Part shown: positions 18,366 through 27,983 of the stretch, one piece after another
Layout of the letters: every line of letters starts with the position of its first letter
Position numbering within the stretch: position 1 is the stretch's first letter
Assembly (NCBI RefSeq): GCF_003790525.1
Contig: NZ_CP033635.1
Length of the DNA: 64,000 nt
Direction: 5' to 3' (one strand)
Origin: Escherichia coli
Lineage (GTDB): Bacteria > Pseudomonadota > Gammaproteobacteria > Enterobacterales > Enterobacteriaceae
Program-made: the position numbers and the translations under genes
Notes under the pieces: generated by a model
Database searches by the model: none
What the model was told of the DNA's origin: nothing
The model's input: only the letters and a program-made list of their open reading frames with translations

Positions 18366-18793
18366 TGTTGTTTCCTCCCGTTCTGTGCTGGTCTGGCGAA
18401 TGAATTGCGTTGTGGTGAAAAGACCATTCGCGCCAGCGCGGCCTTGTGATTGACTGTGTTCAGTGTTCTGGCCAGTCCGCCGTTGTGCCTGCGTGTCCGC
18501 TCTTCGTGATATCTCTGCATGATTTTCCCGGCAGGCGTGCACGGCTCCGGTTCCTCCGGCGAACGGCGCGGACGAATGACGACAGTCCAGCTATGGCTCT
18601 CGCTGCCCGGCCGCCTGTTGAGTATGTCGGCGATGGTGGTCTCCGTGGTGCGATCGGGGCTGACTATCGTGATTTCCAGCTCGTCGCCCGGTTGTGGCCT
18701 TGTGGCAGGCCTGAACAGTGTCAGCACCGGCATACGCTGGCGCATGATGGCCTCAAACTGTGGGCGCTGCATGGTGCAGCAAAATCGCGTCAT
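18362..18793 (-). CDS. hypothetical protein (143 aa), Arg/Pro-rich
   Basis: ORF with start immediately after the gene A stop; GC-rich with alternative frames also open, so coding status is uncertain. Confidence 0.4.
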   Translation of the reverse strand: MTRFCCTMQRPQFEAIMRQRMPVLTLFRPATRPQPGDELEITIVSPDRTTETTIADILNRRPGSESHSWTVVIRPRRSPEEPEPCTPAGKIMQRYHEERTRRHNGGLARTLNTVNHKAALARMVFSPQRNSFARPAQNGRKQQ

Positions 18794-21300
18794 GCTCCCG
18801 CCTCCACTGGCTGCTCTGTGATGATGTGACGGGCTGACTCATCCCAGTACGCTGTTCCCCCGTTATCCAGACGCACACGGGCACCGTTACGCACGGAGAT
18901 GATGGCCGCGTCAGGCAACTGCACACCCAGCGCATCAAGTTCGCGGGCGATTTGCGTGTCCGTCGCGGTATCCGCAGGCACGACAATCCCCACCCTTACA
19001 GGGGTGTCAGATGCCGGTGTGGTGTCGTTTTGTCCGGTTTTTGCGCCCGACGGCTGATTTTTAATCTGATTACGCAGTTTTCTCCGATCGCCCCTGCTTA
19101 ACGTATTCAGCCAGCTTTCCAGGTTCTCTTCGGGAAGCGTCAGTCGTCCGGGGTCCTGCCTGTTTTCTGGTCCGTGATTGTCTGTTTTTTCATCCCGGGG
19201 ACAGTTATTGCCACGAGTCCAAGGGGCGACGGGGTCGCCCTGAAGGTCAAAACCCTCGCCCGTGCGGTTGTCTGGTATTGTTTCTTTTTTAACCAGTTTC
19301 CACTCGTCCGGATGGGTGCATATGGTGTACCGCTCTCCGAGCGACGGGGCGCAGATTCCGTAGATACGTTGAGGGAATTCACCGTAGTCGTTGGCTTCGT
19401 CTGCGGTTTCGTATGCGGTGCGGACCAGATACTGGTTGCGCGGAATGAGCACACCACCCTGTTTCATGATGTAGGTGGCAAAACATCCCACATCTGCGGC
19501 AGCCATAATGGCGTCAATATCGTCATGATCGAGGTGCTTCGGTGATGCCGGGTTGCGCTCCATCTGGCTTGCAAGGCGGCGGAGTTCACGCCATACCTGG
19601 CGGGGCGGAATGCCGAAAAACTGGAACTGACGGATGCGGTGAAGGCTTGCCCAGGCAATGGCGTTCTCCACGGTTTCCGCCATGGTTTTCCCGGATTCCT
19701 CATCAACGTAAGGTTTTCCGGTTTTCGGATCATTGTTGTGGAAAGCGCTGGCGTCCAGGTTCTTACCGATATAGGTTGCGATATAGCTTGCCGGTGTGCC
19801 TTTTTCCGGGTCTATCTTCTCGCATTTAAAGCGCGGTGAAATATCGTCCCCCAGTTCGTGGCGATCTGATTTAATTGCTGCTTCGCGCATAATTTCGATG
19901 ATGCGCTCTGCGTTCTCCGGGGAAGTGAATACCAGCATATGCCAGTGTGGCGTGCCGTCATGGTGTGGCTCAGCGGTTCGCACGCCGTACCAGCCCAGCC
20001 CCTCTTTTTTTATTTTTTTTCTTACGGCTGCGAAGAAGTCGTAAACCAGATAATCACTGGCATCTCGTACTGTGGCACCGTTGTATTTCGGGTTCAGGCT
20101 GCCGTTCTCGTTCACGCTGTGAAAGCGGGAAGGGGTGGTTACTGTGATGAAGAATGCGACGTCAGCCCGTAATTCGGCCACCATCTCCATCCCTCTGACG
20201 CAGACCATCATTTCATTGCGGCGGTTGCGTGGATTACCCAGGCCAGCCCAGTACACGTCCTCCAGACTCAGGCGCTCGCCGTCTTCGTTTTCAATATCCC
20301 AGCTTTTGAGAAAGTCACAGGTGCGCTGGCGCTTCTCGCGGAACTCCAGTAGTGACTCATGGCTGATATAGGGGGATTGTTTACGTGACACTCTGCCGGC
20401 GGCGCGCAGTAACTCCTCCCGCCAGAGATCGGCGACGTGGCGTAACTGGTTGTTCCACCAGGTCGCGCAGGTGATGCGCAGTACCGCACCCGGAACCCGT
20501 TCAGGGTCCGGCGGTGTGCGTCGGTTGTGCCTGATTTCGAGTTCCGGCCAGTATGGCGGGACCATGCCCAGAATTAAGGCTGTGCGTGCCACCTTCTGGT
20601 AGGCCAGCAGCCAGATAACCGGGCTGTCATTATCCTTGCCTGTCCGTTCAAGAACTTCATCACATATGCGTTCAAATTCTGCGGCGAATGCCTGGGCTGT
20701 CAGTGTGGCGATGCGCTGGATTTCGTCACGGGTGAGTTGCGGCAGTGTGAGCAGTTCTTCAAGGCGATGGCGCACGACGGTGGTTTTGAATGCCGGCGTT
20801 GCAAAGCGGTCGTTAACCCTTTCAATACGTTTCAGGCGCGCACGCAGTCCACGGCGAACGAAATTATCGGCCACGTATGCGCTGTTGTTTTTTACACCTT
20901 CACTGCGGGCACTTTGCTGTTTCCGGTTCAGTCGTGCCAGATCACGGATCAACACACTGGCAAGAAACGAGGGCAGGGTGCGAAGTTCGGCTATCGCCTC
21001 CGATACCGCCGTTGGCGGATTTTCGCGTCTGTGTCGTGCCAGCTTATCCAGCCTTATCTGCCGCTCTTCGTCCCGGTGAAGGTGTGAATTAATTTGCTTA
21101 CCTTTGTCCGTGGTTGTCAGGAAGGCCACGGTTTCTTCATCCAGCCGGGCCTCAGTGCGAATGTCTTCGGTGAGGTAGTCACGGATTGCCCGTTGTAATG
21201 CGGTTGGCTTCTGCGGTAATGCTCTGCCGAATGTCTCAGGATCAATAACCGGCAGCGGGGCGTTCCACGGGTACGCCAGGTGCGTGTGGTGATGGCTCAT
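18790..21300 (-). CDS. phage replication initiation endonuclease (P2 gpA-like, rolling-circle)
   Basis: 836-aa ORF; contains a GTPHWHMLVF HUH-type motif; position in the early operon as for P2 A. Confidence 0.8.
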   Translation of the reverse strand: MSHHHTHLAYPWNAPLPVIDPETFGRALPQKPTALQRAIRDYLTEDIRTEARLDEETVAFLTTTDKGKQINSHLHRDEERQIRLDKLARHRRENPPTAVSEAIAELRTLPSFLASVLIRDLARLNRKQQSARSEGVKNNSAYVADNFVRRGLRARLKRIERVNDRFATPAFKTTVVRHRLEELLTLPQLTRDEIQRIATLTAQAFAAEFERICDEVLERTGKDNDSPVIWLLAYQKVARTALILGMVPPYWPELEIRHNRRTPPDPERVPGAVLRITCATWWNNQLRHVADLWREELLRAAGRVSRKQSPYISHESLLEFREKRQRTCDFLKSWDIENEDGERLSLEDVYWAGLGNPRNRRNEMMVCVRGMEMVAELRADVAFFITVTTPSRFHSVNENGSLNPKYNGATVRDASDYLVYDFFAAVRKKIKKEGLGWYGVRTAEPHHDGTPHWHMLVFTSPENAERIIEIMREAAIKSDRHELGDDISPRFKCEKIDPEKGTPASYIATYIGKNLDASAFHNNDPKTGKPYVDEESGKTMAETVENAIAWASLHRIRQFQFFGIPPRQVWRELRRLASQMERNPASPKHLDHDDIDAIMAAADVGCFATYIMKQGGVLIPRNQYLVRTAYETADEANDYGEFPQRIYGICAPSLGERYTICTHPDEWKLVKKETIPDNRTGEGFDLQGDPVAPWTRGNNCPRDEKTDNHGPENRQDPGRLTLPEENLESWLNTLSRGDRRKLRNQIKNQPSGAKTGQNDTTPASDTPVRVGIVVPADTATDTQIARELDALGVQLPDAAIISVRNGARVRLDNGGTAYWDESARHIITEQPVEAGA

Positions 21301-21787: not shown

Positions 21788-22012
21788 TTAGTGGTGGTGC
21801 TGGTTAATGAGGTCCTGCAGCTCGCGCAGGTCATCCACCAGGTAGCTGAATACAGCGGCGGAATACATGTTTGACAGTGCGTGGCTGCGCTCATGCAGCA
21901 TATTGATGTGCATGATATGCGCGACGCGGAATGCGCGGAAAAGTCTGCGGTTGATTTCAGTCTGGATGTGACGACGCGCAGCGTATGCGCGCTGTTGTTT
22001 GCGGTTTGCCAT
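21788..22012 (-). CDS. hypothetical small basic protein (74 aa) with C-terminal His run
   Basis: ORF downstream of the iteron-like non-coding region. Confidence 0.45.
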   Translation of the reverse strand: MANRKQQRAYAARRHIQTEINRRLFRAFRVAHIMHINMLHERSHALSNMYSAAVFSYLVDDLRELQDLINQHHH

Positions 22013-22332
22013 GGTGTGGCCTCTGTAGTTGCAAGTTTTGAAAACTCACCATCCAGAGGTTGCAATTCTGGGTGGCGAGACGTACAGGGTTGCAACCACC
22101 GGCAACTACAGAAACCGGCCCGACCGAAGTCGGCCCCATACGCCCCGCCATAATTCTGGCGCGAAAAAGACGTGGCGATACGGTACGCACAAAAAAACCG
22201 CTGGCGCGGTTGTGCGCTGTAGTTGTCAGCGGGGGTTGCAATCCCGGCACCCGTTTTATGAGGTGCAGCGGAAATGTAACCTGACTGATTGCGGCATGGC
22301 AAGCGGTTTTTTTGTGTGTGCATAGTGGTTAC
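22013..22332. repeat. non-coding region with iteron-like CTGTAGTTG / GGTTGCAA repeats
   Basis: GGTTGCAA-type motif at about 22027, 22059, 22089, 22235; CTGTAGTTG at about 22023 and 22218, with its reverse complement at about 22103; all read directly. Confidence 0.6.
22191..22211 (-). terminator. rho-independent terminator inside the iteron region
   Basis: Minus strand reads AACCGC-GCCA-GCGGTT followed by T7. Confidence 0.5.
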
Positions 22333-22971: not shown

Positions 22972-23121
22972 TGATGAATCCGCCGTTCAGTGGATCTGGC
23001 GGACACTTTGTTCAACACGCCCGGGGGTAAAGATGTCTGGCTGCAAAAATTCCACGAGCCAGGTTACCCTGCACTCTGCGCTGATTAGGGGCAGAGCGAT
23101 GACGATGAGGGATAAAACACC

Positions 23122-23604
23122 ATGCAAAACAACCAACGTAAAAAATCGAGAGAACGGGATGAGGTCATGTTCCGTCTCTGGTACAGCTACTGGCTGGAGC
23201 GCATCGCGGCGGTATTCAATCGTCGCCTTGATGCGATCATCAACATTTTGATCCTTGCGGCGGGTGCGTTCATCGTAGCCGGCTGGCATTTCGGCTGGGT
23301 GCTTGGGGCAGTGGTGGTGGTTCTCGGAGCCTGTAATTTCATATGTCGTTTCGGGCAACGTGCGCAGGCGGCGAGTGAGCATGCCCATCGCTACAATGAG
23401 TTGATTACCAAAAGCGCCCTCCTCAGTACGGAAGCTCTGCTGGCACGCCTTCCAGAGCTTGAGATGCATGACTCTCCTGTCCTGGAATGCATGGAAAATG
23501 TGGCGTACAACAAAGCCTGTATGTCTCTGAATATCAGTCATCGTGAATCTCTCTCTTTCGCTGAAAAGATGATGGCTGCCATTACGATCGGTTTTTCCCG
23601 ATAA
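23122..23604 (+). CDS. predicted 2-TM inner-membrane protein (160 aa), opposite strand to the surrounding early operon
   Basis: GAGGG about 11 bp upstream of ATG; basic N-terminus, two adjacent hydrophobic helices (ILILAAGAFIVAGW and WVLGAVVVVLGACNFI), helical C-terminus; preferred over the overlapping His/Arg-rich antisense ORF. Confidence 0.55.
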   Translation: MQNNQRKKSRERDEVMFRLWYSYWLERIAAVFNRRLDAIINILILAAGAFIVAGWHFGWVLGAVVVVLGACNFICRFGQRAQAASEHAHRYNELITKSALLSTEALLARLPELEMHDSPVLECMENVAYNKACMSLNISHRESLSFAEKMMAAITIGFSR

Positions 23605-23643
23605 GTGCCCTGCGTGTGTCATCTGACGCTCGCCATGTTCCCG

Positions 23644-23892
23644 TCAGTCGTTCGGGTTTATGACGTAATCCACGACGTTTTCCACGCGGCGGCGTAATTC
23701 CCTGTGTATCTGGCCTGGTGTTGCTGGTTCGCCCGGTTGCCCCAGGCCTGCCACAAAATCGTCGATTTCACTCATAAGCAGGTTGCGCATTACGGCGATA
23801 TGGTGACGCGCCTCTTTGCCTGGTCTGCGTGCGTTGGTATCGTGTTTGCTGCTCATGTTCTTACCTCGCTTATTATCTCGAGTTCGCGCCAT
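23644..23892 (-). CDS. hypothetical small basic protein; start possibly at 23856
   Basis: ORF in early operon; an internal ATG overlaps the upstream stop. Confidence 0.4.
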   Translation of the reverse strand: MARTRDNKRGKNMSSKHDTNARRPGKEARHHIAVMRNLLMSEIDDFVAGLGQPGEPATPGQIHRELRRRVENVVDYVINPND

Positions 23893-24062
23893 GACTCTGT
23901 CAGGACGGTTATCTGTGACCCGTCCGTCAGGTGGACGTAAATCAGTTCGTCACCTGCCGGGCATCGGGTGGTGGTGGCGATGACACTGCTTTCCACTTCG
24001 TATTCCATCCCGGATGTATCGGTAAAAAGCGTTTTATTGCGTCTTCTCAGAATTGCAGTCAT
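23853..24062 (-). CDS. hypothetical protein (69 aa)
   Basis: ORF in early operon. Confidence 0.4.
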   Translation of the reverse strand: MTAILRRRNKTLFTDTSGMEYEVESSVIATTTRCPAGDELIYVHLTDGSQITVLTESWRELEIISEVRT

Positions 24063-24072
24063 GGTGTGGCCC

Positions 24073-24366
24073 TCAGTGTATTCGTGATGACGTGCCAGCC
24101 TCAGTGCTCTGAAGCTGACGTCTGAGGTTTTTCAGCTCCTGAGCCAGCCTGATGTTTTCTTCCCGGAACTCAGAAAGCGCCTGCACGGCAAGGGCGATGG
24201 CTATCGCTTCTGTCTGGTGCATCATGGCTAATAATATTTCTTCCGGATGTTCCATTAATTCACGGCTTAGTTTGTTTTTTTTCTTAATTAATTTGTTTGT
24301 GCCTTCGATTATTTTGTTGACCTGTTCACTGTTATCAATGATTCGGTTTTTTTTATTATTAAGCAT
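24073..24366 (-). CDS. hypothetical protein (97 aa), Lys-rich N-terminus, predicted coiled coil
   Basis: AT-rich ORF; heptad-like helical sequence. Confidence 0.45.
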   Translation of the reverse strand: MLNNKKNRIIDNSEQVNKIIEGTNKLIKKKNKLSRELMEHPEEILLAMMHQTEAIAIALAVQALSEFREENIRLAQELKNLRRQLQSTEAGTSSRIH

Positions 24367-24446
24367 TCCTGATTTCTCCTTTTTGAGCGGGTCAACCCCT
24401 CCGCGTGAGCGGATGTTTCTGGTTGTTTCTGGTGTTAAACGCCTGT

Positions 24447-24572
24447 TTATTTACGGCGCTTATCGCCAGTAAATAACGATTCAATGGTGTTAATGCTGTT
24501 AATTACCCGCATAATCCCCACAGCGCAAATAATGGCAAGGATAAGAATTAACCATGACATAAATACGCTCAT
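24447..24572 (-). CDS. unlisted small hydrophobic peptide (41 aa, MSVFMSWLILILAIICAVGIMRVINSINTIESLFTGDKRRK)
   Basis: My own reverse-complement translation; ATG overlaps the TGA of the upstream 80-aa gene in an ATGA arrangement; single predicted TM helix. Confidence 0.3.
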   Translation of the reverse strand: MSVFMSWLILILAIICAVGIMRVINSINTIESLFTGDKRRK

Positions 24573-24811
24573 GCTTCCTCCTGAATTACAAAGGGGGTTA
24601 TTACGTTTCCTTCAGACAGGTCTTTATTAATGGCCTGTAATTCCGTCAGAGCTTCATTATCTCCGGAACCAAAGGCGCAACAGGTCAGGCCCTTGATTGC
24701 TGTAGTCAGTGCTGCAAGTGAAACAGCGTCACCGTTAGTGCCACGGCTTGTAAGTCCGTAATGGTAATTCTGAAGCGCGTCGTTAATGAGTTCTTTATAG
24801 GCTCTTTTCAT
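24569..24811 (-). CDS. hypothetical protein (80 aa)
   Basis: ORF in early operon. Confidence 0.4.
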   Translation of the reverse strand: MKRAYKELINDALQNYHYGLTSRGTNGDAVSLAALTTAIKGLTCCAFGSGDNEALTELQAINKDLSEGNVITPFVIQEEA

Positions 24812-24849
24812 CTTGCTGCCTCTTCTGTCTTATTAAGACTCCTTTTGCC

Positions 24850-25158
24850 TTAGTAGTCGGTATGCTGAAAGCTGCGCCCCTCGATTAAGCGGTCGGCAGT
24901 TCGCAAGGCTTCGTGCAGTGTGAAATCCTGTCCGAACTGATTGTCGCCGCTGCTCAGTGCAAAAATGCGGTTTCCGGTAAACGGATTGCGGTGGCATCTG
25001 TGGATCACGAGTCCGGCCTGCTCAATCAGCCAGGTGTGTTGACCAGTCTGTTTTACAGCATGACCGCCCGGCGTTGCGTGTGTTTCGCGCAGGCTCCAGC
25101 GGTTATTGCTGCGTGGTGCACTGTTGCGGAAATGTGGCTGTGAATAATGTTTTCGCAT
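24850..25158 (-). CDS. hypothetical protein (102 aa)
   Basis: ORF preceded by a strong AGGAG Shine-Dalgarno; follows a 280-bp AT-rich gap. Confidence 0.5.
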   Translation of the reverse strand: MRKHYSQPHFRNSAPRSNNRWSLRETHATPGGHAVKQTGQHTWLIEQAGLVIHRCHRNPFTGNRIFALSSGDNQFGQDFTLHEALRTADRLIEGRSFQHTDY

Positions 25159-25440
25159 TATTTATCTCCTGCGCTTATTTTTCCTTCTATGCAATCTTTC
25201 ATGAATAACAAATACTCATTGGCTTCCTCTTCCGTTTTTAATATTCTCTCCAGATAGAAATTCTGAAAGTGTATATAGACTTATGCTCCTACCTTTGTTG
25301 TGGCTATTATGTCTTTTGCTTTAAAGTGCAATGCGTCACTACTTCTGGAGGTTAATCTTTGTCTTGGTTTCATGTTGTTGTCTTCCTTTACTTGAATACT
25401 ATTGCGGAAATATAGCTACGAATGATTACGTTGTGTGCCT

Positions 25441-25647
25441 CTACCTGATGAGCCAGATGACAAACGCTGTAAGTCCCGCGCCAACAACTATTGGAAAAAG
25501 CCCTTTAGAATAAGCTGCGACGTAATGAACGTTGAGGACAATAAAACGTTCTTTTTGTCCTGTTAGCTTGCCAAGCAGATAAATCACTACTACGCCTAAT
25601 TCCAGGAATATAATGTTCAAAACGGCATTGATGATATTGCTGGTCAT
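25441..25647 (-). CDS. small membrane protein (68 aa, two predicted TM helices)
   Basis: Highly hydrophobic AT-rich ORF directly after the first early gene; weak ribosome-binding site. Confidence 0.4.
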   Translation of the reverse strand: MTSNIINAVLNIIFLELGVVVIYLLGKLTGQKERFIVLNVHYVAAYSKGLFPIVVGAGLTAFVIWLIR

Positions 25648-25655
25648 TTTCGTGT

Positions 25656-26177
25656 TTAGCCGGGCTGGTTGTTTTTGAGTTGCTCCAGTTTTGAAACTCT
25701 GGGGGAGTAAACCTGCTTACCTTTAACGGTCTGGCAGTCCTCCTTGTTTGCCGGTGAAAACTTTCTTTTCTTGCGGTCGTACGTCCAGTAGCTTTTCCAG
25801 TTGTGCCACTCTGGCGGTTCGCACTCCAGTAGTTCGTCGGCTAGTTCGTCCCAGGCTTTGGCGTTAAACCACCATGTACCGTCTGACTTTTCATCTTCGG
25901 GATTTGAGCGCGTTTTGTGACCCGGCATCTGCCCGCGCTGAATGGCGGCGCGTAGCGCAGATTTTGTTACCCCCAGATAGGCAGCCCCTTTTTCCAGTGA
26001 CACAAGTCCTGCGACTGGGCCGTCCAGTCGTAGGGTTGCGCCCTTTTTGTAGGACGGTCTGGTTTTGGTTTCCAGGTGTTCGTTGTCGTTGGCAGCTTCA
26101 ATGAATTCATTGTCCGCGCCATCATCCTGAACCGGTTGAGCGCCAGATAACTCTTTGTCGGCAATAATCTCCCGCAT
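25656..26177 (-). CDS. first early-operon protein, Cox/Apl-like helix-turn-helix protein with acidic N-terminal and basic C-terminal extensions
   Basis: Divergent from the repressor gene; HTH-like LEKGAAYLGVTKSALRAAIQRG; at 173 aa it is larger than P2 Cox. Confidence 0.45.
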   Translation of the reverse strand: MREIIADKELSGAQPVQDDGADNEFIEAANDNEHLETKTRPSYKKGATLRLDGPVAGLVSLEKGAAYLGVTKSALRAAIQRGQMPGHKTRSNPEDEKSDGTWWFNAKAWDELADELLECEPPEWHNWKSYWTYDRKKRKFSPANKEDCQTVKGKQVYSPRVSKLEQLKNNQPG

Positions 26178-26213
26178 TTGTTATCCTCTTGCATTGGTGC
26201 GCTTGTTGCGCCT

Positions 26214-26259
26214 TTTGATGATTTTTGATGACTTGTAAAGATAATCGTACGGTTATCTT
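26214..26259. promoter_or_regulatory. immunity switch region: two direct TTTGATGA repeats 10 bp apart plus a 22-bp near-perfect palindrome
   Basis: Direct repeats at 26214-26221 and 26224-26231; palindrome AAGATAAT-CGTACG-GTTATCTT at 26238-26259; lies between divergent repressor and cox-like genes; P2 C is known to bind direct repeats. Confidence 0.5.
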
Positions 26260-26280
26260 TTGTAGGAGATTAATCCCCAA

Positions 26281-26622
26281 ATGAGTATCTTGTCAATAGA
26301 CTATGCGAAAAAGTTGCGTTTGATACGCAAGACGGAAGGGCTAACTCAAAAGCAATTTGCTGATATTACAGGGTTATCTCTGGCAACTGTCAGGAATTAT
26401 GAGTCAGGGCAAAAGATCGCCAGAGCAAAGATTGTTGAGGCCGTCCTTCAAGTGGATCGGTTTGAAAAATATATGTTCTGGCTAATCAAAGATAAGACGC
26501 TACCTGTTGCCGGTCAGATCGCCCCGGCTCTCTCTCTTGATGGCTCCACGCAGTCGGAGGACGATCAGGTTTCAACCCGCAATACCCAAAAATCACCCCA
26601 ATCAGGCCGCAATGCTGGCTGA
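26281..26622 (+). CDS. phage immunity repressor, P2 C-type (XRE-family HTH)
   Basis: HTH LTQKQFADITGLSLATVRNYESGQ; C-terminal GQIAPAL segment resembling P2 C as I recall it; upstream of and co-oriented with integrase. Confidence 0.75.
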   Translation: MSILSIDYAKKLRLIRKTEGLTQKQFADITGLSLATVRNYESGQKIARAKIVEAVLQVDRFEKYMFWLIKDKTLPVAGQIAPALSLDGSTQSEDDQVSTRNTQKSPQSGRNAG

Positions 26623-26682: not shown

Positions 26683-27687
26683 GTGCTGATCATGTCGATT
26701 AAGCAACTCAAAGACGGACGTTATCAGGTTGATGTAAGGCCTCAGGGGGCGGGAGGAAGGCGGATTCGTAAGATTTTCACCCTGAAATCAAAGGCGCAGG
26801 AATTCGAAAGATACGTTCTTCAGAATTTCCACAATAACCCGTGGCAGGCAAGGCCCGCCGATCAACGGCGGTTATCAGAACTGATTGAGGTGTGGTGGAT
26901 GCTTGATGGTCGTAATCAGGCATATGGTGATACCTACAGAACCAGACTGGAGAAGGTGATACGTGAAATGGGGGACCCGCGCGCCAGCCAGATGACACGA
27001 AAATTCGTGATTGAGTATCGCTCGGATAAGTTGCAGGCGGGACTGATGCCGTCCAGTATCAATCGCGACCTGTGCGCCTTATCTGCGATGTTTTCGTTGT
27101 TAATTGACGCGGAGGTTTATCATAACGAAAACCCTGTGCGCGGAATACGTAAACTCAAGGTTCAGAATACAGAAATGGCCTTTCTTTCAGATGACGAGAT
27201 TGATCGCCTTCTGAAACGGCTTGAGGGTGATGCACGACGCATTGCCATTCTGTGCCTTTCGACCGGGGCCAGATGGAAAGAGGCGTCAACGCTTCGCGGG
27301 GAACACATCGTGGGTAACAGGGTGACGTTCTTTAACACAAAGAACGGGAAATCGCGCTCGGTTCCTGTAGCTGATTCCGTTGTGCCGTTAATTAAAACCC
27401 GCCGGACCGGCCTGTTATATCAGGTTGATTATCTCAGTTTCAGGGAGATCCTTCAGGAGGTGAAGCCCGACTTACCCAAAGGGCAGGCCACGCATGTCAT
27501 GCGGCACACGTTCGCCACGCATTTCATGATGAACGGCGGGAACATCGTCACGTTGCAGAGGATCCTGGGTCACGCCACGATTCAGCAAACGATGACGTAT
27601 GCGCATTTTTCACCGGACTTTTTACAGGATGCGATCAGCTTTAATCCGCTGGCTGAAAGTGTCCATAAACTGTCCATCGACCAGTAA
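26683..27687 (+). CDS. int: tyrosine integrase (P2 Int-like)
   Basis: 334-aa ORF; C-terminal HxxRHT and Y motifs (ATHVMRHTFATH ... MTYAHF); terminal position in the prophage. Confidence 0.85.
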   Translation: MLIMSIKQLKDGRYQVDVRPQGAGGRRIRKIFTLKSKAQEFERYVLQNFHNNPWQARPADQRRLSELIEVWWMLDGRNQAYGDTYRTRLEKVIREMGDPRASQMTRKFVIEYRSDKLQAGLMPSSINRDLCALSAMFSLLIDAEVYHNENPVRGIRKLKVQNTEMAFLSDDEIDRLLKRLEGDARRIAILCLSTGARWKEASTLRGEHIVGNRVTFFNTKNGKSRSVPVADSVVPLIKTRRTGLLYQVDYLSFREILQEVKPDLPKGQATHVMRHTFATHFMMNGGNIVTLQRILGHATIQQTMTYAHFSPDFLQDAISFNPLAESVHKLSIDQ

Positions 27688-27799
27688 TTATTTGTGATAA
27701 TTTGCTCCCCTTGTTTTTGTTTACTTATTGAAAAATAAGGAAATCAGCAAGAGGAGTAAGTACCGTTAAATCTCCTGCGGGCGCTTTTTTTGTCTCCCT
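27688..27799. other. putative prophage-chromosome junction (att region); core not identified
   Basis: Non-coding stretch between the int stop and the dmsA FNR site; the other prophage end is outside the window. Confidence 0.3.
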
Positions 27800-27813
27800 T
27801 TGATACCGAACAA
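27800..27813 (+). promoter_or_regulatory. FNR binding site of the dmsA promoter
   Basis: TTGAT-ACCG-AACAA read directly, matching the FNR consensus TTGAT-N4-ATCAA; dmsABC is FNR-activated. Confidence 0.5.
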
Positions 27814-27983
27814 TAATTACTCCTCACTTACACGTAATACTACTTTCGAGTGAAAATCTACCTATCTCTTTGATTTTCAAATTATTCGATATATACAAGC
27901 CTATATAGCGACCTGCTATAGAAATAATTACACAATACGGTTTGTTACTGGAATCAATCGTGAGCAAGCTTGAGTGAGCCATT

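Follow-up and report, generated by a model that had tools for sequence, protein, structure and literature searches.

The window analyzed here is a 64,000-nucleotide (nt) stretch of Escherichia coli DNA (contig NZ_CP033635.1), and the region of interest, positions 23644 to 25647, is the promoter-proximal part of the minus-strand early operon of a P88-like prophage (Xuanwuvirus, P2 family) situated by dmsA. The genes very probably form one early operon in which conserved backbone genes alternate with two variable cassette slots, and the region as a whole is probably an ordinary accessory segment of that operon. On this account, a region that had looked anomalous would have the normal anatomy of a P2-family early operon. 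The one mildly new item is a strictly coupled gene pair encoding a DUF4754 protein and a small transmembrane (TM) peptide, which is an unnamed family. The analysis yields a defined set of small phage membrane proteins, an understudied class, including the DUF4754-coupled family of 37 to 45 amino acids (aa), and two mapped cassette slots.

Prophage identity and distribution

The assignment to a P88-like early operon rests on the RefSeq layout, P88-type DNA matches, a Pfam domain, and a P2-like gene arrangement. RefSeq annotates, at the prophage end adjoining dmsA, a replication endonuclease gene, small open reading frames (ORFs), and a minus-strand Cox gene, followed by plus-strand helix-turn-helix (HTH) repressor and integrase genes and then dmsA. 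The replication endonuclease gene (A, 18790 to 21300, minus strand) lies downstream of the early genes. The first gene of the early operon is cox-like (25656 to 26177, minus strand) and encodes a 173-aa protein with a Pfam Phage_Cox domain (E = 2.4e-8), assigned to phrog_23196 (“transcriptional regulator”) and named “Cox family DNA-binding protein” by PGAP. It faces both the C-type HTH repressor gene (26281 to 26622, plus strand) and, beyond it, the phage integrase gene int (26683 to 27687, plus strand); this int-C-cox arrangement of face-to-face operons is the one annotated for P2. An int/C/cox switch and a downstream A gene, as expected of a P2-family early operon, are both present. The first-pass annotation of this DNA, made from the letters alone, had placed the region in the early operon of a P2-family prophage, between cox-like and replication genes, which the annotation, Pfam, and the P2 layout bear out, and every ORF that it listed is present on the minus strand where it was placed.

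DNA matches in phage records are solely to Xuanwuvirus and its relatives (P88, P88_4B11, and others), at about 83% identity and over the DUF4761 gene only, and this gene was also the only stretch of a 2.9-kb query that matched in the phage collection. The sequence of the region recurs in complete E. coli chromosomes, at 100% identity in TUM1886 and at 99% or more in 14 further genomes, and 959 of 5426 complete E. coli genomes match the 2.9-kb query, mostly at 80 to 90% identity.

The window shares with P88 and the Xuanwuvirus relatives P88_4B11, PhiR44_2, and Citrobacter phage Shae_phiSM the genes int, C, cox, DUF4761, and DUF4754, an ATGA-coupled 37- to 45-aa peptide, and gp08-like and Ea22-like genes. 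The DUF4761, DUF4754, small TM peptide, gp08-like, and Ea22-C-like genes stand in the order of P88, the early operon of which runs cox, DUF4761, gp05, DUF4754, 37-aa membrane protein, and gp08. The GC content is the same gene by gene, and a 68-aa gene follows cox in P88_4B11 and PhiR44_2, while Shae_phiSM encodes a 75%-identical version of its product. Unlike P88, the window lacks gp05 (92 aa) and the winged-helix gene gp09, and its DUF4754 allele is only 30 to 33% identical to the P88 type. The cox-like protein has 173 aa in the window, 141 aa in P88, and 95 aa in P88_4B11, and, in contrast to the isolated phages, the window carries a 97-aa orphan ORF and an interrupted 71-codon gene.

Backbone genes and operon architecture

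A single transcript would originate in the C/cox switch region and run through cox and the packed small genes toward the replication endonuclease gene. The backbone of the array consists of the DUF4761 gene, the DUF4754 gene with a coupled 41-aa peptide, a gp08-like 69-aa gene, and an Ea22-C-like 70-aa gene. Slot 1, right after cox, holds a 68-aa two-TM gene and a nonsense-inactivated 71-codon gene, and slot 2, after a conserved hairpin, a lineage-restricted putative 97-aa ORF. Spacing is tight, with 8 nt from cox to the 68-aa gene, one TAATG overlap, two ATGA overlaps, and one 10-nt gap, and Shine-Dalgarno sequences precede most ORFs of the region.

The DUF4761 gene (24850 to 25158, minus strand) encodes a 102-aa protein that matches Pfam PF15958 over model positions 10 to 100 of 105 (E = 5.6e-47) and phrog_2492. 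Its ratio of nonsynonymous to synonymous substitution rates (dN/dS) is 0.07 to 0.20, and its AF2 model has five strands, one helix, and a disordered basic N terminus (pLDDT 71). The DUF4754 gene (24569 to 24811, minus strand) encodes an 80-aa protein upstream of the 41-aa peptide that matches Pfam PF15946 over model positions 1 to 75 of 80 (E = 2.2e-10) and phrog_2549, with an AF2 model of a three-helix bundle (pLDDT 87). It diverges fast, alleles being 30 to 48% identical with a dN/dS of 0.4 to 0.6. Fold-based functions were considered for both proteins and rejected; the top Foldseek matches (designed helical bundles, FliS, and AcrIF24) all had E values of about 0.5 or above, those of the DUF4754 model being generic helical bundles only, and no function is therefore proposed from the models. 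Neither DUF4761 nor DUF4754 was mentioned in the literature searched, and the P88 and Xuanwuvirus papers listed do not, by their titles and abstracts, address the early genes.

The 69-aa gene (23853 to 24062, minus strand) is a homologue of P88 gp08 and occupies the same position in all relatives; its product is 45% identical to a 71-aa protein of the prophage CS5L (E = 5e-19) and 32% identical to P88 gp08 over 34 residues (E = 1e-5). The 70-aa gene (23644 to 23856, minus strand) is related to the C-terminal half of the Ead/Ea22-like P88 gp10, with 42% identity over 52 residues (E = 2e-13), and belongs to phrog_4144 (E = 8.6e-13). Its start at 23856 is the choice of PGAP, has a GAGGT Shine-Dalgarno sequence, and lies in an ATGA overlap. 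An 82-aa reading from 23892 was considered, but no Shine-Dalgarno sequence is found there, and 23856 is the most likely start. The earlier description of the region as a run of proteins of no recognizable family was wrong for the DUF4761 and DUF4754 proteins and overstated for the 68-aa and 70-aa proteins, which belong to PHROG families.

A membrane peptide coupled to DUF4754

The 41-aa ORF (24447 to 24572, minus strand; PGAP WP_024211217.1) encodes a predicted single-pass membrane peptide with one TM-like segment at residues 3 to 21 (Kyte-Doolittle) and a basic C-terminal tail. The first-pass annotation recognized it as a hydrophobic ORF overlapping the upstream stop codon in an ATGA arrangement, which can be read directly in the sequence. 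It was also described as unlisted, which holds for the length-thresholded ORF list but not for RefSeq/PGAP, where it is annotated. Its GGAGGA Shine-Dalgarno sequence lies within the 3′ end of the DUF4754 gene, and P88 gp07, a 37-aa “membrane protein,” is a homologue with the same ATGA arrangement. The 4-nt overlap of the small ORF with the DUF4754 stop codon was found in every locus examined, 18 in total, comprising the window, P88, five E. coli genomes, and eleven IMG/VR contigs; some of these loci are near-identical to each other. By this arrangement, the peptide is translationally coupled to DUF4754.

A profile search collected 113 clusters (at 90% identity) of 37-, 41-, or 45-aa proteins from E. 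coli, E. albertii, and E. fergusonii. The TM segment is almost unvarying (consensus MSIFISWLVLIISVxCAIGIMRII), S6, W7, A17, G19, I20, and M21 being near invariant, and the C-terminal tail is variable. Pairwise dN/dS is 0.10 to 0.28, with synonymous divergence near saturation. Pfam, NCBIfam, and PHROGs hold no entry for the family. Positively charged segments of membrane proteins tend to stay on the cytoplasmic side (the positive-inside rule), and the basic, variable tail is probably cytoplasmic.

Slot 1: the 68-aa gene and an interrupted 71-codon gene

The 68-aa gene (25441 to 25647, minus strand), in slot 1 after cox, encodes a predicted inner-membrane hairpin protein with Kyte-Doolittle TM-like segments at residues 8 to 26 and 49 to 67, in agreement with the two-TM peptide that had been noted; by the positive-inside rule, the basic loop would face the cytoplasm. 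The protein belongs to phrog_14475 (E = 3.7e-25). Its start lies 8 nt past the cox stop codon, where a clear Shine-Dalgarno sequence was not seen, and homologues with 58 to 90% identity begin 6 to 10 nt past the cox stop codon in every other carrier locus found, the isolated phages P88_4B11 and PhiR44_2 among them. About 335 of the 5426 genomes match a 497-bp query comprising the 68-aa gene and the gap that follows, nearly all of them over the 68-aa gene, which has a dN/dS of 0.26 to 0.36. Purifying selection and wide conservation confirm that both small hydrophobic ORFs, of 41 and 68 aa, are real genes. The 68-aa gene is nevertheless an optional cassette, since it is absent from P88, where cox and the DUF4761 gene are 37 bp apart.

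RefSeq leaves the following 282-bp stretch (25159 to 25440) without annotation. It had been noted as an AT-rich gap, and its size and composition (34% GC) stand, but it is not empty; it holds a nonsense-interrupted 71-codon gene (25158 to 25373, minus strand). An AAGGAAG Shine-Dalgarno sequence lies ahead of its ATG, a single in-frame TAA at codon 31 (25281 to 25283) leaves a 30-aa N-terminal fragment, and the original stop codon of the frame overlaps the DUF4761 start as TAATG. Alignment of positions 25140 to 25460 with two prophages revealed intact 71-aa homologues in CS5L, where it is unannotated, and in 23CRST011 (WP_029490429.1). Strain B771 has the same TAA, its single difference from the window sequence lying elsewhere, and over the stretch the remaining genomes with the allele show 99.7% identity, so the nonsense codon appears to be fixed in this 15-genome lineage. 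The dN/dS of 0.6 to 2.3 indicates relaxed constraint even among intact 71-aa copies.

The contents of slot 1 vary among loci. The slot is empty in P88 and elsewhere holds the 68-aa gene alone, the 68-aa gene with a 39-aa TM ORF and a 27-aa ORF, a 36-aa TM ORF with the 71-aa gene, the 71-aa gene alone, or, in the window, the 68-aa gene with the broken 71-codon gene. The 36- to 39-aa TM ORFs of related prophages form a second family of small TM peptides, with the motif FG(F/Y)LLSG, found at L013 2016 to 2126, L011 2296 to 2415, L008 2352 to 2471, and L003 about 2745 to 2855. PGAP leaves this LLSG peptide unannotated in CS5L (L003) and F374 (L008), and L011 and L013 are unannotated IMG/VR contigs. 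In P88_4B11 and PhiR44_2, two overlapping 35-aa ORFs are annotated at slot 1.

A further variant was seen in the ETEC1732 prophage (L004 2392 to 2510), between the 68-aa and DUF4761 genes, where an ATG-initiated frame starting MNKQQRNSEPNNMGFRRNYFENG continues in frame into the annotated DUF4761 start and, by eye, repeats its N-terminal motif MKQQRNS...RFRNGAERHANRF. The sequence points to a tandem duplication or to a DUF4761 isoform with an N-terminal extension.

Slot 2: a conserved hairpin and the 97-aa orphan ORF

Slot 2 starts, in the spacer after the 41-aa gene, with a short conserved hairpin, TCCGC-N4-GCGGA (24400 to 24413), the stem of which is kept and the loop variable in four lineages (the window, CS5L, 23CRST011, and P88). 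Read on the plus strand, antisense to the operon, the hairpin has a T-rich tail behind it and scores as terminator-like. A role as a regulatory RNA or terminator was considered and rejected; the stem has only 5 bp, no covariation was seen, and its stability is not significantly above that of shuffled sequences. The corresponding stretches of relatives are L002 3715 to 3790 and L003 1695 to 1770. A further plus-strand hairpin lies at 24431 to 24443 in the window. The plus-strand hairpins between 24400 and 24443 might stop antisense transcripts from plus-strand genes such as the 160-aa ORF described below.

The putative 97-aa orphan ORF (24073 to 24366, minus strand) fits exactly into the space that separates the hairpin from the next gene and has a GGAGA Shine-Dalgarno sequence 8 nt upstream. 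It had been called a Lys-rich coiled-coil protein. The N terminus is indeed rich in Lys and Asn (9 Lys) and the C-terminal half looks helical, but for the coiled coil there are only subthreshold Pfam matches to helical families. When 1.84 billion representative proteins were searched exhaustively with HMMER, the only matches were copies at least 94% identical. Nothing was found in phage records (tblastn), Pfam, or PHROGs, and word-indexed protein and PDB sequence searches added nothing. The DNA of the ORF occurs in 26 of the 5426 genomes, always at 95% identity or more, and is absent from CS5L, 23CRST011, and P88; slot 2 in relatives holds nothing, a 108-aa ORF (phrog_21900), or a 136-aa ORF (phrog_9338).

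The variation seen among copies of the 97-aa ORF is all nonsynonymous or indel. A run of eight A residues (24275 to 24282) is a slippage site, with a −1 change in L012 and a frameshifted copy in P0136, while P0020 has +6 at this run and keeps the reading frame. In strain F11 (H20, H114), an IS5-family element interrupts the ORF just downstream of the run.

Base composition

The GC content of the region is 46.2%, compared with 56.1% for prophage positions 1 to 23000, where windows of the same size have a standard deviation of 3.1 points and a minimum of 48.4%. The marked AT richness reported for this cluster is therefore real, but it is patchy. Low GC is found in the 68-aa gene (41.5%), the gap (34%), the 41-aa gene (38%), the 97-aa ORF (42%), and the DUF4754 gene (46%), whereas the DUF4761 gene (55%), the 69-aa gene (50.5%), and the 70-aa gene (55%) are near the prophage average.

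Per-gene values are constant in every prophage examined, at 34 to 38% for the small TM gene, 45 to 49% for DUF4754, 34 to 40% for the 71-codon gene, and 51 to 55% for DUF4761. Furthermore, the small-ORF segment from cox to A lies 7 to 12 GC points under gene A in P2 (45.3 versus 53.2%), 186 (44 to 45 versus 51.8%), P88 (46.4 versus 58.9%), and the window (46.1 versus 56.1%). Because the same per-gene GC recurs across alleles and the same dip occurs in P2, 186, and P88, low GC appears, on compositional grounds, to be an inherited, family-wide property of early accessory genes and no sign of recent foreign acquisition. The first-pass annotation had named recurrence of the same ORFs, with similar composition and known functions, across P2-like early operons as the observation that would count against its reading; the ORFs do recur with the same low GC in related early operons, but known functions do not accompany them.

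Expression signals

Consensus scanning identified five sigma-70-like promoter sites, compared with 4.8 expected from shuffled sequence, all within ORFs, and seven terminator-like sites, compared with 5.4 expected, none of them on the operon strand inside the region. No Rfam RNA family was found within 23000 to 26300. As the scans revealed no separate promoter, terminator, or antisense RNA, the region appears to fit a polycistronic early transcript carrying in-operon cassettes rather than classical morons or independent type I toxin loci. Since the genes lie behind an early promoter under repressor control, and no promoters of their own were detected, they would probably be made only after derepression or infection.

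Possible functions and alternative explanations

Tentatively, the small genes of the region may adjust host physiology early in lytic growth, by analogy with Fil and Dhr of phage 186. The first-pass annotation had raised host-takeover or toxin-type roles for the small membrane peptides, and what speaks for such roles is this analogy of position. In 186, fil (75 aa), which inhibits cell division, and dhr (66 aa), which inhibits host DNA replication, lie between apl/cII and the replication genes, are transcribed from a repressor-controlled early promoter, and have 44% GC. They are small non-essential genes at a position equivalent to the region, followed in the annotated 186 record by non-essential small ORFs; for the window, non-essentiality is suggested for the variable cassettes only, by their presence or absence among loci. 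In contrast to the membrane peptides here, Fil and Dhr lack a clear TM segment (maximum 19-residue hydropathy, 1.26 and 0.49), and no sequence similarity to either was found. P2 (orf78, B, and orf80 to orf83) has the same switch, a run of small ORFs from cox to A, and GC about 8 points under gene A. Its families (DUF2732, DksA-like zinc finger, and DUF5405) differ from DUF4761 and DUF4754, homology was not found, and P2 Orf78 is basic, not hydrophobic.

The 41-aa peptide would act by a specific contact between its helix and that of a conserved host or phage inner-membrane protein, and not as a nonspecific pore toxin, because its TM helix is near invariant, its tail is basic and variable, and its cotranslation with DUF4754 is obligatory. 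Small membrane proteins of bacteria usually work by binding to larger ones (PMC12648545), and small membrane regulators working through such contacts are a class that the invariant TM segment fits. By this analogy, residue-level invariance would suit partner binding better than nonspecific membrane damage. The peptide resembles MgtS/MgtR-type regulators and prophage type I toxins in having no more than 50 aa and a single TM helix. It differs from them in that no homology was found and in being encoded in a phage operon, coupled to a soluble protein; unlike type I toxins, it has no stand-alone promoter or antisense RNA.

More specifically, DUF4754 and its coupled peptide could form a two-gene early module that disables one host inner-membrane machine (the divisome, a transporter, or a membrane-bound defense effector), with the post-cox slot as a hotspot swapping small membrane proteins (the 68-aa two-TM and 36- to 39-aa LLSG types) as conflict countermeasures, although this is unlikely. 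If true, module and hotspot would constitute a previously undescribed class of membrane-targeted takeover or antidefense peptides in P2-family phages. Targeting of a host membrane machine by the coupled pair would also provide a handle on early takeover by the very common P2-like prophages of E. coli.

Several results weigh against the account of the region as an ordinary accessory early-operon segment whose small genes act on the host. Homology searches tie no ORF of the region to a function; none of the window ORFs significantly matched the 186 or P2 early regions by tblastn, PADLOC and NCBIfam gave no match for any ORF in the region, comparison of the ORFs with PDB sequences gave nothing under an E value of about 0.04, and Foldseek searches of the DUF4754 and DUF4761 models against PDB gave no significant match. 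Translation of the 97-aa ORF is unsupported, with no diverged homologues and with frameshifted and insertion sequence (IS)-interrupted copies. The early promoter was not confidently located; a TTGACA at 26291 to 26296 has no good −10 element and was not flagged by the scan, and single-transcript expression is deduced from the gene arrangement and the P2 paradigm. Moreover, the consensus promoter scan is crude, and weak or non-sigma-70 internal promoters in AT-rich DNA could escape it.

Among the alternatives, it is possible, if rather doubtful, that some of the ORFs, chiefly the 97-aa ORF and the 30-aa remnant of the 71-codon gene, are chance frames in an AT-rich spacer, as T- or A-rich DNA readily yields hydrophobic or Lys-rich translations. 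The 41-aa and 68-aa ORFs are excluded from this explanation by the selection and conservation described above. It would account for the lack of any homologue of the 97-aa ORF below 94% identity, its exclusively nonsynonymous or indel variation, its frameshifted (L012, P0136) and IS-interrupted (F11) copies, and the fixed nonsense codon and high dN/dS of the 71-codon ORF, but less readily for the well-placed Shine-Dalgarno sequence of the 97-aa ORF, its fit to a slot filled in relatives by unrelated genes of PHROG families, and the +6 variant that preserves its frame. The region had also been called moron-like. As morons or lysogenic conversion genes, the ORFs would be horizontally acquired and expressed from the prophage, serving superinfection exclusion or antiphage defense (like HK97 gp15, or T4 Imm and Sp if early), which seems improbable. 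The variable cargo of the two slots does recall morons, as the presence of the 68-aa gene, the 71-codon ORF, and the 97-aa ORF varies at sites where the flanking genes are neighbors in relatives, small TM ORFs from two or more unrelated families recur in slot 1, membrane localization is predicted, and GC lies under that of the late genes. The same low GC is, however, common to the backbone early genes in all alleles and to P2, 186, and P88, and the DUF4761, DUF4754, 41-aa, 69-aa, and 70-aa genes are backbone and not insertions, the DUF4754 and 41-aa genes being core rather than optional cargo. Furthermore, the ORFs lie on the early-operon strand, tightly spaced or overlapping, downstream of a repressed early promoter; promoter and terminator signals (by consensus scan only) are not above chance, with no terminator-like site on the operon strand, and there are no PADLOC matches.

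It is likewise hardly probable that the 41-aa or 68-aa peptide, or both, are type I-like membrane toxins (Hok, TisB, Ldr) or Kil-like host-killing peptides restrained by an antisense RNA or by a partner such as DUF4754. Both are small, hydrophobic single- or double-pass peptides, prophages are known to carry type I toxins (PMC12648545), and the tight pairing with DUF4754 could be an arrangement with a neutralizing partner. A weak plus-strand promoter-like site (24332 to 24359) and the plus-strand hairpins at 24400 to 24413 and 24431 to 24443 would, in principle, permit a short antisense RNA, but that promoter lies within the lineage-specific 97-aa cassette and therefore cannot serve the conserved 41-aa family. 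No Rfam antitoxin RNA was found and promoter-like sites are at the chance count, offering no sign of an independent or antisense transcript; the 41-aa ORF lacks its own promoter and leader and is ATGA coupled in every one of the 18 loci. In addition, its near-invariant TM residues argue for specific contact over generic insertion, and searches of NCBIfam and PADLOC revealed no similarity to known toxin families. The description of the region as an ordinary, cassette-bearing early-operon segment is preferred to each of these explanations.

Neighboring features

The cox-like protein is, at 173 aa, about double the size of P2 Cox (91 aa), and its Phage_Cox domain covers residues 56 to 129 only, with an acidic extension on the N-terminal side and a basic one on the C-terminal side. 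Cox-like proteins of relatives fall into two size classes, short (95 aa) and long (141 to 173 aa). The HTH region of the protein has a weak PADLOC match to mad1 (E = 8e-7).

A 160-aa ORF (23122 to 23604, plus strand; phrog_6315) is embedded in the early operon beside the region on the opposite strand. It has adjacent TM segments at residues 36 to 54 and 57 to 75, is conserved in the CS5L and 23CRST011 prophages, and, besides phrog_6315, has only subthreshold matches, to SLATT_1 (E = 0.006) and BaxI_1 (E = 0.022). Because of its orientation opposite to the operon, it would be a better candidate for a lysogen-expressed moron or defense gene than any ORF between 23644 and 25647.

Farther along the operon, two Rfam matches above gathering scores lie on the minus strand between 22068 and 22266, the C4 antisense RNA (RF01695, 80 bits, 22068 to 22155) and isrK (RF01394, 60 bits, 22191 to 22266). 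They are just upstream of a 74-aa ORF (21788 to 22012) in the position of P88 gp14, a “derepression protein,” and together with it look like an antirepressor control module of the P1/P7 c4-ant style or the Gifsy IsrK type. At the other end of the prophage segment, the AT-rich interval between int and dmsA contains a match to the STnc130 small RNA (Rfam, 127 bits; 27759 to 27893, minus strand), which presumably represents the host region upstream of dmsA that borders the attachment site.

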